64,000 nucleotides of DNA from positions 1 through 64,000 of the IMG/VR virus record IMGVR_UViG_3300049846_001128; one strand, written 5' to 3'. Below, piece after piece: positions 12,840 through 52,156 of this stretch (positions are counted from its first letter, which is position 1; every line of letters starts with the position of its first letter). The notes beneath the pieces were generated by a model, which did no database searches, was not told the DNA's origin, and worked only from the letters and a program-made list of their open reading frames with translations. The position numbers and the translations under genes are program-made. This DNA is from a virus.

Positions 12840-13279
12840 TGAAAAAAGAATTAACTCCTGAGCAGATTGCAGAACTTATTAAATCCGCTGGAGGAAATGC
12901 CTCTATGTCATCCGAAAAAGCTATTGACGCTGGGGTTGGTACTGATTATCGTAAAAACATGTTAAAACTACTTAAACAAATAAAAGCACAATCTCCAGAA
13001 GCTATAAAAGAGGCAGGTCGTCAAGTCTATGGGGAATTAGATGATGCTGCTGGTTCTAGAGTTGCATCTACTTTGGTAAAACGATTACCGGCTGCTGCGT
13101 TAGGAGGAATTGGCTTACTAGGGTCTATGGGAGCTGAAGCAGCAACCACAGAAGATATTGGCGAATCTCCAGAGGAAGAGGCTATAATGCTTGCTGAGAG
13201 AGATGCTACGGAAGATTACAAGAATTCTCCGGCTTTTGCTGCTAGACGAGCCGCTATTGAAAAACTAAGAGGTCGTTAA
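12839..13279 (+). CDS. Putative virion cargo protein, shared C-terminal signature
   Basis: LPAAALGGIGLLG...GESPEEEA...ARRAAIEKL. Confidence 0.6.
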   Translation: MKKELTPEQIAELIKSAGGNASMSSEKAIDAGVGTDYRKNMLKLLKQIKAQSPEAIKEAGRQVYGELDDAAGSRVASTLVKRLPAAALGGIGLLGSMGAEAATTEDIGESPEEEAIMLAERDATEDYKNSPAFAARRAAIEKLRGR

Positions 13280-14238
13280 TGGCTGACGATAATAAACTAT
13301 CTTCTTTAGCAGCTTACTCTGCTGCTTTAAAACAGATTAGTGAATCCCCAGAAGGATTACCTTCTATTAATCCAAAAGCTTCAGCAAAAATAGCAGAAGC
13401 TTACAGTGCATTACAACATAGTCCAGATGATCCTGCAGTCCAACGAGCATATCAAGCATTGATTGATGAAACTGTTCAGCAATACAAAGCAATGCAAGAT
13501 CAGGGTTTAAAAATTTCCAAAATAAAACAAGGAATGGACAATCCTTATCCAAATTCCAAAGCAATGATTAAAGATGTTGCTGAAAATAAACATCTTTGGT
13601 ACTACCCGACTGAGCAAGGTTTCGGTTCTTCTGGGGCGGATAGCTCAAAACATCCCATGTTAAAAGTTACTGATCTTTTAGATGATGAAGGCAAGCCAAT
13701 GTTGGCTAATGACGTGTTTCGCGCAGTTCACGACTACGAAGGACATTACAAAGGTAATAATAAGTTTGGAGCTTTAGGAGAAGAAAGGGCTTATCAACAA
13801 CATAAGAAAATGTTCTCGCCAGAAGCTGTTAAGGCTTTAACCACAGAAACTCGTGGGCAGAATTCTTGGGTTAATTATGGACCTTATGGGGAAGCCAATC
13901 GCGCCAATCCAGCAAAAACAACTTATGCTGATCAGAAAGCAGGGTTACTTCCAGATTGGGCTAGTAAGAATGTTGATGAGATTGCAAATCCTCTTTTATA
14001 TAATGCTAAACAAGCTGGTAAAATGGTAATTAAGACTGGACTTCCAGCAATAGCTATTGGTGCAGCATCCTCTGAACCAGATTTAAGCTCTGCATTCATG
14101 AATACTGTAATTCCGGGTGGAAATCCTGAAGCTGGGGAAAGTCCAGAAGACGAAGCAGCTTTGATAGGTGAAATTCAGGGCTATAAAAATTATCAAAAAG
14201 CTAAGCGGGATGCGCTAAGGGCTTTGCTAAAAAAATGA
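13279..14238 (+). CDS. Polyvalent-protein-like domain (FRAVHDxxGH..GEERAY) with shared C-terminal signature
   Basis: NDVFRAVHDYEGH...FGALGEERAY..H...ETRGQNSWVNYGP is a divergent metal-binding motif. Confidence 0.6.
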   Translation: MADDNKLSSLAAYSAALKQISESPEGLPSINPKASAKIAEAYSALQHSPDDPAVQRAYQALIDETVQQYKAMQDQGLKISKIKQGMDNPYPNSKAMIKDVAENKHLWYYPTEQGFGSSGADSSKHPMLKVTDLLDDEGKPMLANDVFRAVHDYEGHYKGNNKFGALGEERAYQQHKKMFSPEAVKALTTETRGQNSWVNYGPYGEANRANPAKTTYADQKAGLLPDWASKNVDEIANPLLYNAKQAGKMVIKTGLPAIAIGAASSEPDLSSAFMNTVIPGGNPEAGESPEDEAALIGEIQGYKNYQKAKRDALRALLKK

Positions 14239-14432
14239 AAAAGAAAGAATTAGAATCTAATTTACTAAATGATATTTTCTACGCTGCAATGCCTGAGCGA
14301 AAAATTCGCCCAAGTAAGCAAGAGCCACAGGAATCAGAAGAGGATTCTGAGTATCTTGACGATCTGCGTGAAAAGAAACGCGCTCGCTACGAAGCACTAA
14401 AACTTAAAGCCCGTGAAGGTTGGGGCGAATAA
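14235..14432 (+). CDS. Small hypothetical protein
   Basis: ORF; ATGA overlap. Confidence 0.6.
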   Translation: MKKKELESNLLNDIFYAAMPERKIRPSKQEPQESEEDSEYLDDLREKKRARYEALKLKAREGWGE

Positions 14433-46890: not shown

Positions 46891-47253
46891 GTGAAGAATC
46901 CTTCACTCTACGCTGATTTTGTTAAAGAGACAGTTGGTTGGGAAACTTTAGAAGATTCTAACAGTTTTGTAACCTATGAAATACAGAAGATTAAAGGTAT
47001 TCACAACCTTAAAGTTATAGAAATGTTCATCTCCAAAGAAGCCCGTGGACAAAGAAAATGGGAAGATTTGATGGACAAGATTGAGCAAGTTGCCAAAGAG
47101 AATGAGTGTAAAACTATTTCTGCCCAAATCTCTAAAAGCACTAGCGAATTTACGCAGCAAAGAACTGCACACTTATGCAGACTTAACGGAATGCAAAAAA
47201 CATACGAAGATATTTACCAAATTATCTACAGTAGAGGAATAAGAAATGAGTAA
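46891..47253 (+). CDS. GNAT-fold protein (T7 gp13-like position)
   Basis: EMFISKEARGQ..VAKENECK acetyl-CoA-binding-like motif. Confidence 0.6.
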   Translation: MKNPSLYADFVKETVGWETLEDSNSFVTYEIQKIKGIHNLKVIEMFISKEARGQRKWEDLMDKIEQVAKENECKTISAQISKSTSEFTQQRTAHLCRLNGMQKTYEDIYQIIYSRGIRNE

Positions 47254-48109
47254 GAACGCCGGAAAATCGGAAATGTCAGAATCAAATGACTTAATGCGAG
47301 CAAACATTGCCCGTCTTGAAGCCATTGGAATTCCAACCATTGAGGCGCAAAAAATAGCACTTCAAAACCCTGAATTAGTTGAGCCATTAATCGCTGAACA
47401 GCTTGGTGCTTCTGCAATGCAAGACGTTCAAATGGACCCTCGCCTTATGGCGGCTCAACGAGCTGCTTTGGACGAAATGACTGGGTTAGGGCAGACAGGT
47501 CTTGGTGCTGAGGATAGAACTGCTTTTAACCAGCTAAGAAGACAAGCCGCAGCCGCTGCTGAGGCTCAACAAGCTTCTACCTTGCAAGAAATGGCTTCTC
47601 GTGGTATGCTCGACTCTGGTGCAAATCTTGCAGCTCAGTTAGCAGCAGGACAAGCTCAGGCTGACAGAATGAGTCAGGAAGGTGATAGAATTGCAGCTTC
47701 TGCCGCTGAGGCAAGAAGAGCAGCTTTAGGACAGCAAGCAAATATGGCAAGTCAAATGTCAGCTCAAGACATTGGCTTAAAAACAGGCAAGGCTTCAGCA
47801 GCTGACACTATTGCTCAGTTTAATGCTCAGCAAAGAGCCGGTGTAGGCGCAGCTAATAAAGCGTACGAGCAGCAAAGAGCCAACCAACTTGCAGGTCTTA
47901 GACAGCAAGAGGAAATACATAACAGAGGACTTGTTCAGCAGCAGTTCCAAAATAAGATTCAAAAAGCTGGGGGAGTTGCTCAGCAGCAAAGCCAAATGGC
48001 TGCTAATCTTCAGAACCAAGCAGCTGCAGCTCAACAGGCTCAGCAAGCAATGACTTCTGGATTATTAAACCTTGGCGGAACTTTAGGAGCCGCAGCTATA
48101 AAAAAGTAG
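47246..48109 (+). CDS. DNA ejection (pilot) protein; possible -1 frameshift extension to 48189
   Basis: Ala/Gln-rich; ASRGMLDSG motif; ends in A AAA AAG TAG. Confidence 0.7.
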   Translation: MSKNAGKSEMSESNDLMRANIARLEAIGIPTIEAQKIALQNPELVEPLIAEQLGASAMQDVQMDPRLMAAQRAALDEMTGLGQTGLGAEDRTAFNQLRRQAAAAAEAQQASTLQEMASRGMLDSGANLAAQLAAGQAQADRMSQEGDRIAASAAEARRAALGQQANMASQMSAQDIGLKTGKASAADTIAQFNAQQRAGVGAANKAYEQQRANQLAGLRQQEEIHNRGLVQQQFQNKIQKAGGVAQQQSQMAANLQNQAAAAQQAQQAMTSGLLNLGGTLGAAAIKK

Positions 48110-48146
48110 ATAGCAGTGGTCCAGACGCAGCTGGTGGAACTACTGC
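48085..48146 (+). other. Programmed -1 ribosomal frameshift cassette
   Basis: AGGAG 48085-89, A AAA AAG 48100-06, stem-loop 48113-48146. Confidence 0.7.
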
Positions 48147-48190
48147 ATACAGCACAGATTATTTAAACGGTAATACAGGAAAATATTAGC

Positions 48191-49546
48191 ATGAGTAATC
48201 CATTTTTAGATGAATTATTAAAACAACAAAACGTTATTGACGAAGTAGCTTTGGAAGATTATCAACGCAATGCTAACAGTCCAGAAGCTGATAAAAAACA
48301 AATTAACCCATACCTACCGTATGAGGTAAATCCTATGCAGGAAGATGATAGGTCTAATGCTCAGCGACTATCTGATAATATGAAAAGTCCGTTGATGGTT
48401 GCACCTGAGTATTTAGGAAAATTAGGAATAGACGCAATGCCTATACAACAACCAGAGGTTGTCGACAAGCAAACTCCGGCTGTAAATGAACCTAATTTTA
48501 CACAATCTACTAAAGATGGGACTAGTCAACAAGATCAACCACCAAAAATGGATAAAACTGAAATACAGCAAGCCAATGCTACTTTAGACACTTTACCAAT
48601 GTCTCCGCAAGAAAAGCTTTTAGCTGAGTTTAAAGCTATGCAAGAGCGGGATCAAAAAGCCTTGGATGAAGCCCGTTCTTCAGACAGAATGCTTAAGATG
48701 GGCGGAGCTATTGGGGACGCTTTAGCCACAGTTTTGAACGCTCGTGGACAAATGAATGTAAAAGCACCCGGAGCTGGAGTTAAAGAAGGTGCAGGACTTG
48801 GTAAAGTTGCGGATATGTTTCAAACTTCTCCAGAAATTGCTGCTGATTTAAAAAGAAAAAGAGAGGACTTACTCGCTCAATTCAAGACTTTGAAAAACAG
48901 CGGCGAAATGACTCCGTATCAAAAAGCTTATCTTGAAATGAAAATCAGAGATCAAGAATTACGAGAGCAATCTCAGCAAGGAGTGCAAGGCAGACATGAG
49001 GATACTTTAGGTCTTAAACGAGAAGAGAAGGGTCAATTGAGTGATAAAGTTGCTACTTCTTTCGCTGACATGCAAACAGCTAAACAAGAAGCCGCTAGAC
49101 TTCTTCCTAGAGTTAAAGAAGCTGGTCTTGGAATTTTAGGAACTCCTTATCAAAAAGGTAGAGCAGCAATCGGTCTACCTACTAAAGAATTTCAAGCACT
49201 AGAGTCTGACTATGCTGGAATTAGAAACACAATCAGAAATGCATTATTTGGTTCTGCCTTGACTGGACCTGAGATTAGTGCTTTCGAGAAAGAGTTGAAT
49301 GATATTTCAATATCTCAATCAGGATTTGAAGACAACCTTTCTAATTTTATAGACAGAGTTGACCGTAAAATGACCGAAAGAGCTAAAGCTATGGCAAAGG
49401 CTCAGCCTTTGAAAGAAAAAGCTCTTAAGCAGTTTATGGCTCCAGAAAGTAACCAAAACACTGGACCATATGGCGACACTGTTGAAAGAAATGGTAAAAC
49501 TTATAAATGGAACCCAGCGGTTGGTAAATACCAGCCAGTAGGATAA
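48191..49546 (+). CDS. Internal virion / ejection protein
   Basis: Position; helical; RNALFGSALT..E motif. Confidence 0.6.
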   Translation: MSNPFLDELLKQQNVIDEVALEDYQRNANSPEADKKQINPYLPYEVNPMQEDDRSNAQRLSDNMKSPLMVAPEYLGKLGIDAMPIQQPEVVDKQTPAVNEPNFTQSTKDGTSQQDQPPKMDKTEIQQANATLDTLPMSPQEKLLAEFKAMQERDQKALDEARSSDRMLKMGGAIGDALATVLNARGQMNVKAPGAGVKEGAGLGKVADMFQTSPEIAADLKRKREDLLAQFKTLKNSGEMTPYQKAYLEMKIRDQELREQSQQGVQGRHEDTLGLKREEKGQLSDKVATSFADMQTAKQEAARLLPRVKEAGLGILGTPYQKGRAAIGLPTKEFQALESDYAGIRNTIRNALFGSALTGPEISAFEKELNDISISQSGFEDNLSNFIDRVDRKMTERAKAMAKAQPLKEKALKQFMAPESNQNTGPYGDTVERNGKTYKWNPAVGKYQPVG

Positions 49547-49547
49547 T

Positions 49548-51533
49548 ATGGACGATAATTTATTTGACGACGAAAATATCCATCCCCAAGCTTTAGAAAC
49601 AACTCAAGCTATGGACGATTCTTTGTTTGATGATAGTCAAACATTCCAAGAATCTGCGCCACAAGGTTCAGATACTACCATGTCTTACGCTCCAGCAAGA
49701 GTTATAACAGAAACCGTGGCAAAAGCCGGAGCAGCTATTCCCGAGTTGGCTGATAAAGCTCTGACAAAAACTGCGGCAGCATTAGGACCATTTACTGAAG
49801 GTCAGCTTGAACTTGTTAAACAAAATAGAGACCAATTTAAAGCAATTCAGCCACAAGAATCGCTTTCTAAACTGGAAGAATCTTTCCGAGGAATTAACCG
49901 AAATGTTGACGAGCTTGGAAAACAAGCCATTGGTAGTCTTGAACAAGGTCTTACTCCTCAACAGTTGAAAGAAATGGTCGGTCAAACTACTGAGCAATTC
50001 TCAAGACCAGTTAATTTAGAAGACCCAACAATTAAAGCCCAAATGGCGGCAGAAGAGTCTCGACTTACACAAGAGTTTGCGGAAAAAGCTCAGAGAGGAA
50101 TGGAAAAGTCTTCAATTAAACAAGCCCAAGAATTTGCCGCACAGAAAGCAGAAGAGGCTGTTAACCAAGCCAAAGCTGCTAACATGGGAAGTATTTCTGA
50201 CGAAGCTGCGGACGCAATTCGCTCCAGCACCATCGAAACAATCATGGCTGCGCCAGAAAAAGCTGGTTTTAAACCACAACAGACAGAAGAAATGCTCGCT
50301 CAATTTCGTGCTTTAAAAGAAGCTCAAGCTAATATTCCAAAGAAAACAATTGAAAGCCTACAGTCACCACTGGCAAAAACATTTCCTCAGTTAGAGGGAA
50401 GAGTTTTAACAACAGCTAAGCCGAGTGAGTTTACTCGTGCAGCTTCATTACTTCCAGAAGGAACTTTACCTATGACTGGTGAAGAATCTTGGAACATGCT
50501 TCGTCAGCTTAGAGAAGAGGCTTACAAGCCAACTGGTGAAGTTAGTAAAGAAGTGGCGAAAGCTGTAAGTCAGAATGTAAGAAATTATGTCGAGCAAACT
50601 TCTCCGGCTGCTTCTGATTTATTTCGTCAACAAAGCGCAGAGATTGAACGGCTTAAAAAACTTCAGAAAGAAGGTTTGCTTACCCGTGAAAAAGGTATTT
50701 CAAAACACGCACCAGAGTCTGTAAAAGTTGGAGAGAAAGAAGCCAAGAGATTGTTCAACGACATGCTTGGTGGAAAGGTTCAATTGACTGATGATGTTGC
50801 CCAAAAGATTGCCGTTCTTAGAGAAAATATTGATCCTAAATTGTTTGATGAACTAAGACTTGCCGCAATCAAAGCCGCAGCAGAAGACCCAACAAAAGCT
50901 TTTAACATTAAACCGTTTGAAGCGGTTATGGGTTTAAGTGGAATTGGTTCTTTACCAACAGCTGGATATATGGGAGTTAAGTACGCAAAAACGCCAGAAG
51001 GTGCTTTAAAAATTGGTGACTTAGTAAATACCGTTTCTAGTGCAATTCCAGCGGGGATTAAATCTGCAGCAAAGACTACAGGAAAAGTTTTAGGAGAAGC
51101 TTTGCCAATTCTAGGAGCCGGAGCCGGAGCAGCAATGGGCTATCAAGAGGCTACCGAGGCTGGTTTTGACCCTTGGGAAAAAGCCGCCTATACAGCGTTT
51201 GAAGCCGTAAACCCGGTTCCAGTGTCTGGGATTGAAATGGCTAAACAGTATCAAAAGAGTAGCCAAACTACATCAAAAGCTAATATTAATGACTATAGCG
51301 CACAGTTTAGAACTCCAGACTATAGATTCAAGTCAACAGACAGTGCCAATATGCAAAACTTAGCAGATAGATTGGCTGAGTTCCAAGGTAATAAAGCTGC
51401 CCAAATGTGGGCTAAAGAATTATCAGACGTTTCCACTCAGTCAGAGGCGCAAAAAGACGCTACACTGGCAAGACTTAACCAGTTGAAAGAGTTCAGAGAG
51501 CTTGTGAGAAGAACCAAGGGGATTAAAGAGTGA
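49548..51533 (+). CDS. Internal virion / ejection protein
   Basis: Helical, with Gly-rich ALPILGAGAGAAMG segment. Confidence 0.6.
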   Translation: MDDNLFDDENIHPQALETTQAMDDSLFDDSQTFQESAPQGSDTTMSYAPARVITETVAKAGAAIPELADKALTKTAAALGPFTEGQLELVKQNRDQFKAIQPQESLSKLEESFRGINRNVDELGKQAIGSLEQGLTPQQLKEMVGQTTEQFSRPVNLEDPTIKAQMAAEESRLTQEFAEKAQRGMEKSSIKQAQEFAAQKAEEAVNQAKAANMGSISDEAADAIRSSTIETIMAAPEKAGFKPQQTEEMLAQFRALKEAQANIPKKTIESLQSPLAKTFPQLEGRVLTTAKPSEFTRAASLLPEGTLPMTGEESWNMLRQLREEAYKPTGEVSKEVAKAVSQNVRNYVEQTSPAASDLFRQQSAEIERLKKLQKEGLLTREKGISKHAPESVKVGEKEAKRLFNDMLGGKVQLTDDVAQKIAVLRENIDPKLFDELRLAAIKAAAEDPTKAFNIKPFEAVMGLSGIGSLPTAGYMGVKYAKTPEGALKIGDLVNTVSSAIPAGIKSAAKTTGKVLGEALPILGAGAGAAMGYQEATEAGFDPWEKAAYTAFEAVNPVPVSGIEMAKQYQKSSQTTSKANINDYSAQFRTPDYRFKSTDSANMQNLADRLAEFQGNKAAQMWAKELSDVSTQSEAQKDATLARLNQLKEFRELVRRTKGIKE

Positions 51534-52156
51534 AAAATCTGCTTGACGCTTTAAAACAAATGGACGAAATGCCTCAAGACAACTATGTTGAGGCTCCACA
51601 AGCCCCAATTGAGTCTGGAGTTGACTGGAAAACTATTGATCAGTTTGAAGGTGGAAATCAGCAAAAGGGCTACGTCCCAAAATCTGGCAAGTCTGGCGTT
51701 ACTGTTTCTACAGGTTTTGATGTAGGGCAAAGACAGAACTTAGAAGGTCTTTCTCCAGAGGTTCAAGTCAAACTACAGCCGTTTGTAGGAGCAAAAAGGG
51801 ATGAAGCTCAAAGAAGATTAGCTAGTATGGGAGGAGTTGAATTAACTCCAGAGCAAGCCCAAGAAGTAGCCGGTTTTGCTAAGAATGAAACAGAGCAGAA
51901 AATGAGAGATGAGTGGGCAAAAATGTCTGATATTCCTTTTGACAGCCTTACTCCTGCTCAGAAAACAGTTATGGCGAGTATTATACACCAGTACGGCACT
52001 TTTAAACGCGCACCAAGATTTTCCCAGTTTGCAGGAAAAGGTCAGTGGGAAAAAGTTGTTAACGAGCTTAGAAATTTTAATGATGAATATAAGACAAGAA
52101 GAAACCGAGAGGCGGATTATTTGCAAAAGTCCTTAAACAAGTTGGCTAAAAATTAA
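51530..52156 (+). CDS. Pesticin-like (T4-lysozyme fold) muramidase, probably virion-associated
   Basis: FEGG..GYVP..SGVTVSTGFDVGQ...QYG...RRNREA. Confidence 0.8.
   Translation: MKNLLDALKQMDEMPQDNYVEAPQAPIESGVDWKTIDQFEGGNQQKGYVPKSGKSGVTVSTGFDVGQRQNLEGLSPEVQVKLQPFVGAKRDEAQRRLASMGGVELTPEQAQEVAGFAKNETEQKMRDEWAKMSDIPFDSLTPAQKTVMASIIHQYGTFKRAPRFSQFAGKGQWEKVVNELRNFNDEYKTRRNREADYLQKSLNKLAKN

Follow-up and report, generated by a model that had tools for sequence, protein, structure and literature searches.

Layout of the locus

The DNA analysed here, called the window below, comprises bases 1-64000 of the 84,740-bp IMG/VR virus record IMGVR_UViG_3300049846_001128. The sequencing runs that contain it are labelled as freshwater or freshwater-sediment metagenomes. 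The gene under study lies on the plus strand at 47246-48109 and encodes a Gln/Ala-rich protein of 287 amino acids (aa; P0001) that is predicted to be all-helical, which would be the short isoform of a pair produced by programmed -1 ribosomal frameshifting at the end of the gene. The protein closes with a Gly/Ala-rich hydrophobic stretch, two lysines and a TAG stop (48107-48109), and the terminal codons read GCT ATA AAA AAG TAG. They contain the slippery heptamer A_AAA_AAG (48100-48106), which stands immediately 5' of the stop and for which the X_XXY_YYZ phase in the zero frame was checked.

Two further elements flank the heptamer on the same strand. A Shine-Dalgarno (SD)-like AGGAG (48085-48089), formed by the Leu-Gly-Ala codons TTA GGA GCC, lies 10 nucleotides (nt) upstream, and a stem-loop (48113-48146) starts 6 nt downstream. 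The segment 48113-48124 pairs with 48131-48134 and 48139-48146, giving 12 base pairs in two stacks with a minimum free energy of -15.9 kcal/mol.

In the -1 frame, 27 sense codons and a TAG (48187-48189) occupy positions 48106-48189 of the plus strand. This frame contains no ATG, GTG or TTG codon, so that the 81 nt between the zero-frame stop at 48109 and the ATG of the next gene at 48191 would be readable only after a change of frame. The next gene (48191-49546, plus strand) encodes a 451-aa protein of no known family and is preceded, at a distance of 10 nt from its ATG, by an AGGA of its own (48177-48180). The initial annotation of the window, made from the sequence alone, had proposed the frameshift; the positions that it gave for the gene, heptamer, AGGAG, stem-loop, -1 stop (48189) and next ATG are all correct. 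Recoding of the TAG codon itself was rejected as an explanation: the tail lies in the -1 frame and not in the zero frame, and TAG ends 12 of the 48 open reading frames (ORFs) of at least 120 aa in the window.

Homology of the -1 frame tail

Searches with P0001 returned 312 homologues at an expectation value (E) of 1e-5 or lower, all of them metagenomic and none with a name. No GenBank phage matched the gene in DNA or protein searches, a scan of genome contigs gave just two distant matches (35% identity), and the closest relative in scans of viral contigs and metagenomes was 64% identical. Past a conserved motif, G-T-L-G-A-A-x-x-K, the family is modular: its members stop there, continue into a short in-frame tail or carry a Peptidase_S74 domain. 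The in-frame tails are 25-40 aa long and fall into three types, ending in ..NYAVNWQPGKNPYGNI(G/A) (type A), ..YDDFYMNKLGK (type B) and ..AGGTTxYSxDYLxGKTGKY (type C).

The -1 peptide of the window is of type C. Aligned with the C-terminal 25 residues of P0038, it is identical at 17 of 25 positions (E = 2e-9), and with the end of P0106 at 18 of 25 (E = 1e-7). Both belong to the five proteins among the 120 best homologues that carry the type C tail in frame (P0037, P0038, P0039, P0079 and P0106); the distant locus L063 has it as well. The tail is about as well conserved against these in-frame tails (68-72% identity) as the core of the protein (72-73%). On homology, the 81 nt behind the stop are best regarded as coding sequence that would be read after a change of frame, and the tail as a modular C-terminal peptide that, depending on the relative, is fused in frame, absent or apparently reached by frameshifting. 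When a 60-aa -1-frame peptide was compared with the protein collection, no -1 ORF calls of near or greater length from close relatives were found.

The surroundings of the gene are conserved. An upstream 865-aa gene, an upstream 120-aa gene and the downstream gene are common to the relatives, in the first eight of which 1-11 nt separate the gene from the next one, compared with 81 nt in the window. The adjacency of the -1 stop and the next ATG had been read as a sign that frameshifting also couples translation of the next gene. That suggestion was not upheld: relatives with in-frame tails likewise have 1-11 nt between the tail stop and the next ATG, so that the adjacency reflects an ancestral compact layout, and the next gene has an AGGA of its own.

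The frame break in relatives

The survey of relatives covered 50 distinct gene ends in fetched loci. A -1 break splits four of them, nine carry an in-frame tail (four of type A, four of type B and one of type C) and the remaining 37 are short or have another C-terminus. The split loci L013, L017, L018 and L024 are 64, 57, 51 and 55% identical to the window, respectively, and are broken at the same junction. Each reads AAG GGA AAG, three codons and TAG in the zero frame, which places G_GGA_AAG in phase, and each has a -1 tail of 33-34 codons that ends 9-11 nt before the next ATG. These tails are of type A (..NYAVNWQPGK..); they differ from one another, keep the type A motif and match in-frame tails of other relatives. 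A stem-loop begins 5-7 nt past the heptamer in all four. Conservation of AAAAAAG together with the stem had been named as a check on the frameshift. At the DNA level the junction break and the stem do recur in the four split relatives, while AAAAAAG itself is replaced there by G_GGA_AAG.

With the window included, in-phase heptamers are present in five of five split loci and in none of the eight loci whose type A or B tail is in frame. Three short forms (L020, L047 and L052) likewise have one, with no tail frame behind it. The codons TTA GGA GCN, which hold AGGAG, are found in four of the five split loci and, among the 15 non-split loci in which the motif was found, in L004 alone; L017 and L018 are nearly alike at this place. 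The spacing between AGGAG and the heptamer is 10 nt in the window and 13 nt in L013, L017 and L018. Stem z scores are -1.67, -2.07, -1.26 and -2.38 for split loci and 0.04, -0.08, -2.02 and 0.12 for aligned in-frame controls. Across loci the statistics of AGGAG, heptamer and stem are suggestive, not compelling.

Two side observations concern heptamers near other gene ends. One of the short forms (L020, 3335-3404) has an in-phase A_AAA_AAA, a 37-nt gap and six open -1 codons, possibly the remnant of a decayed tail or frameshift. Separately, L011 (3380-3412; L012 is identical), P0080, P0085 and P0109 end in ..GKKVV, and an in-phase A_AAA_AAG precedes their stop by 6 nt. From there the -1 frame stays open into the next gene, of 432 aa, and is in register with its ATG, so that a -1 shift would fuse the two proteins; this may be chance.

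A third lineage emerged from protein sequences. The C-terminal part of P0045 corresponds to the -1 reading of the DNA for the last 60 codons plus the stop of P0011/P0022: 60 of 60 codons are compatible with both frames, whereas the best run has a median of 11 when all 119 proteins are considered. P0011/P0022 are 83% identical to the window, and their lineage lies inside the window's own clade. For both readings to hold, their Ser-Gly-Lys must be encoded by TCG GGA AAG, that is, by G_GGA_AAG in phase; the heptamer is followed by one codon and a stop, and a type A-like tail occupies the next 30 codons of the -1 frame. The paired readings imply that this lineage probably has the same arrangement. 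The earlier proposal of a -1 frameshift giving two isoforms is thus supported by the homology of the tail to the C-termini of P0038 and P0106, by the break at the same junction in four relatives and, more indirectly, by this third lineage.

The change of heptamer also bears on the step at which the frame would be changed. If RNA polymerase added one A within the A6 run, the edited mRNA would encode the same long protein, and slippage on runs of A is known in bacteria and viruses. The run in the window is, however, only six A's long, and the four split relatives and the P0011 lineage use G_GGA_AAG, which contains no long homopolymer and points to a ribosomal mechanism in the family. Transcriptional slippage would moreover give no role to the SD-like element or the stem, and we consider it quite improbable.

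Age of the stop codon

The phylogenetic tree comprised 117 rows, four locus translations having been added; the read-through calls P0003 and P0008, the shifted call P0045 and the fragments P0049, P0050, P0090 and P0093 were left out. The window belongs to a clade of 32 rows with a support of 98 (Shimodaira-Hasegawa-like approximate likelihood-ratio test, SH-aLRT). All are short: 26 end in ..SGK(A) and five in ..KK, the window being the last. Among the sister rows, P0037-P0039 have type C tails in frame and P0035 has a tail of type A. Since the whole clade is short, the stop should be older than the ~14-20% protein divergence within it. The split label requires at least three changes on the tree; a count of independent frameshift origins from the tree was rejected because exchange of modules is possible.

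The age of the stop is central to another explanation of the locus, namely a recent deletion of one base from a run of seven A's that cut off a dispensable tail, so that the -1 frame would be an undecayed remnant and any long form incidental leakage. Such a deletion gives exactly ATA AAA AAG TAG, relatives without a tail exist (L005 and L006), and L020, with its 37-nt gap and six open codons, resembles a truncated form. The other 31 rows of the clade are nonetheless short too, so that the stop is not recent, and yet the tail of the window is intact at the 68-72% identity given above. The arrangement is also kept in diverged lineages with another heptamer, and a natural variant (X5, described below) retains the heptamer and the open tail. 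That an old stop is followed by an intact tail, with a conservation equal to that of the core, favours selection acting on the -1 tail over a fresh mutation, which we regard as unlikely.

The two read-through calls concern other members of the family. P0003 and P0008 read the stop of ..SKK relatives as Gln and run for ~31 further codons into the start of the next gene; they are probably alternative-code calls on short contigs that mask the real gene end. As they run on past the stop, those ..SKK relatives must also have a long spacer. Ungapped back-translation of the two gave 13 compatible positions out of 27, little different from the shuffled mean of 11.4.

Sequence verification

The A-rich junction was compared with assemblies from three studies. 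Two of the studies contributed Logan contigs, of runs X1 (55 kb, depth 42.7) and X2 (1.3 kb), which agree with the window at every base of 47600-48700 and show no indel. Either run may represent the sample from which the record came, and rare variants do not show in contigs. The third study contributed a 151-nt unitig of X5, which aligns over 48089-48199 without a gap and with three substitutions. Of the two that are specified, 48132 T>C leaves the amino acid of the -1 frame unchanged, and 48146 C>T changes Ala to Val in that frame and turns an outer-stem G-C pair into G-U. The heptamer and the open tail are retained. In X1, a second record of 151 nt (a unitig of depth 2.7) matches 48077-48114 alone (38 nt) with seven differences, its flanks being unlike the window; it probably stems from a distant relative with the same motif-heptamer stretch.

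The initial annotation had named reads with seven A's, and hence an assembly error, as grounds against the frameshift. The true genome would in that case have a plain in-frame long gene, and homopolymers are error-prone in some sequencing chemistries. At contig and unitig level, X1, X2 and X5 nevertheless share the A6 run without an indel, and the closest protein relatives also end in ..KK. A gross assembly slip is excluded, and an error of this kind is very improbable.

Proposed mechanism and its support

Programmed -1 ribosomal frameshifting that yields two isoforms is the reading we prefer, with a probability of roughly 0.75. Termination at TAG 48107 after ..AAA AAG would be the outcome for most ribosomes and would yield the short form of 287 aa. 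Some ribosomes, while paused, would slip back by one base on A_AAA_AAG; by analogy with dnaX and IS3 elements, the pause would probably be aided by AGGAG 10 nt on the 5' side, the stem-loop 6 nt on the 3' side and the adjacent stop. Shifted ribosomes would go on to read the 27 further codons in the -1 frame and produce a long form with a hydrophilic C-terminal tail. The layout, the homology of the tail to in-frame tails, the same break with canonical heptamers elsewhere and the intact assembly are observed directly; from them we infer the shift of the ribosome and the parts played by the SD-like element and the stem.

Several points weigh against this reading. One concerns the junction itself: since a one-base deletion in the A7 run of an in-frame ancestor produces the same sequence, the heptamer is not independent of the mutational explanation. 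AGGAG is built from conserved Leu-Gly-Ala codons, and L024 is split without it. The tail-less relatives L005 and L006, with gaps of 1-2 nt, indicate that some lineages can do without the tail. For the closest relatives, P0002-P0034 (80-86% identical), the comparison was made at the protein level. Among the ..SKK read-through calls, gapped back-translation of the -1 frame of P0003 against the type C tail was equalled by 6 of 1000 and 5 of 1000 shuffles, which is moderate support only; for P0008 the corresponding values were 266 of 1000 against the window tail, giving no support, and 17 of 1000 against the P0038 tail.

The composition of the window adds to these points. AAAAAAG occurs 58 times, compared with 56 +/- 6.8 in shuffled sequences, and is therefore not enriched. 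In the 48 ORFs of at least 120 aa there are 92 in-phase XXXYYYZ heptamers, behind which the -1 frame has a median of six open codons; it stays open for at least 27 codons in seven of the 92. The z score of the stem is -1.67 to -2.0, and equally good folds arose in 18 of 200 and 8 of 200 dinucleotide shuffles; this is a modest gain over shuffled sequences, and the in-frame control L026 reaches -2.02.

The heptamer counts would suit a plain spacer between genes whose -1 frame lacks stops by chance. That account is effectively refuted by the matches of the -1 peptide to the C-termini of relatives described above. Taken one by one, the elements of the site are within chance, and their combination is significant through comparison with relatives alone.

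One other heptamer in the window was considered and rejected as a recoding candidate. A_AAA_AAA at 14229-14238, before the stop of the ORF 13279-14238, is followed by 65 open -1 codons; these are accounted for by an ATGA start/stop overlap with the next ORF, of 65 aa (14235-14432).

A wider version of the preferred reading is put forward tentatively, at somewhat less than even odds. The relatives may form one family of virion-module proteins in which a C-terminal peptide is hard-wired, absent or added sub-stoichiometrically by -1 frameshifting, with at least two heptamers and at least two tail types in use; about 32 'short' protein clusters would then carry hidden -1 tails.

Protein identity and genomic context

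The protein had been labelled an ejection protein, a label that found little to sustain it. P0001 gave no PHROG match at E <= 0.01 and no Pfam or PDB match, and searches of PDB sequences with the family profile and with three neighbouring proteins gave no meaningful match. The Pfam family P22_gp7 (PF25688) was matched by 0 of 47 family members at E <= 1. A lead to P22 gp7 from Atlas features (score 0.92, 154 shared features, the family being present on 32% of the cluster) is weak and was not confirmed.

Other members of the family point in a different direction. The Peptidase_S74 domain (PF13884) was not found in P0001; in P0066, P0111 and P0116 it starts at residue ~289-297, directly behind the core, where the small tails attach. 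This intramolecular chaperone domain is characteristic of fibre and spike proteins that form trimers, and its position at the tail junction hints that the core may be a trimeric fibrous protein. A fibrous virion protein appears at least as likely as an ejection protein. Relatives of the same core with Peptidase_S74 are P0066, P0071, P0091, P0111, P0112 and P0116 and the loci L029, L066, L069 and L073. The AlphaFold model of P0001 is all-helical with one very long helix and is of low confidence (predicted local distance difference test score, pLDDT, 64.3; predicted template-modelling score, pTM, 0.21).

The frameshift gene stands at the distal end of a virion module that includes genes for terminase (16033), portal (17561), a capsid protein (21294) and tail proteins (27150 and 30788). 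Just upstream of it, the 120-aa ORF (46891-47253, plus strand) overlaps its start by 8 nt; this ORF has 55-72% identity in relatives and weak matches to acetyltransferase PHROGs (E = 9e-6). Two genes past the frameshift gene, a 208-aa ORF (51530-52156, plus strand) with a Pesticin/phage-lysozyme C-terminal domain (PF16754, E = 1.2e-25; phrog_24780, E = 6e-30) is likely to encode an endolysin or virion lysozyme. No tRNA genes were found in the window.

Comparison with known systems

Annotation of -1 frameshifts in tailed phages is almost confined to tail assembly chaperones; capsid and tail genes contribute a few cases. According to PMC10885494, tail assembly chaperones account for 2397 of the 2476 joined genes in the SEA-PHAGES set. 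No description of a frameshift in a gene such as the present one was found in the literature searched (including passages of PMC10885494, PMC10386132 and PMC9965538). Gene callers return short forms or alternative-code read-through products such as P0003 and P0008, so that the tail is invisible in protein databases. The three states of the junction (in frame, frameshifted with different heptamers, and deleted) offer unusually clear comparative support, and the family is a natural series in which to study how selection could favour a constant proportion of tailed to untailed subunits. The mechanism itself is canonical, and what is new is the gene family in which it appears to operate.

A geometrical parallel is Escherichia coli dnaX, in which the tau/gamma frameshift uses A_AAA_AAG with an SD-like element ~10 nt upstream and a stem-loop ~6 nt downstream. 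The window has the same tripartite geometry, with a stem that is modest by comparison with shuffled sequences. The outcome differs: in dnaX a shifted ribosome meets a stop very soon and the product is shorter, whereas here the zero frame is the one that ends immediately and a shift would add 27 residues. A search of 47900-48400 with Rfam cmscan (E <= 10) detected no frameshift element, the four matches obtained being at chance level and to unrelated families; the site in the window is accordingly an analogue of dnaX rather than a member of that RNA family. The transposases of IS3-family (IS911-type) insertion sequences (IS) likewise combine A_AAA_AAG with an upstream SD-like element and downstream structure, as does the window, but the IS shift fuses two substantial overlapping ORFs, whereas the present one would add a short tail to a virion-module protein.

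With respect to the products, parallels are gene 10A/10B of phages T7 and T3 and the major head protein of Lactobacillus phage A2, in which a -1 frameshift gives a C-terminally extended isoform. There, as proposed here, one virion-module gene yields mostly a short protein, together with a smaller amount of a longer one that bears an additional peptide at its C-terminus; the protein of the window belongs to another, unannotated family and is not a capsid protein. With respect to conservation, the parallel is the lambda G/GT frameshift, together with those of other tail assembly chaperones (Xu, Hendrix and Duda, 2004). The G_GGA_AAG of the four split relatives is of the lambda G/GT type, and in both cases the position of the frameshift is conserved across diverged phages. 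The gene described here differs in being distal in the virion module and not a tail chaperone, and its extension is of ~30 aa and not a whole domain.

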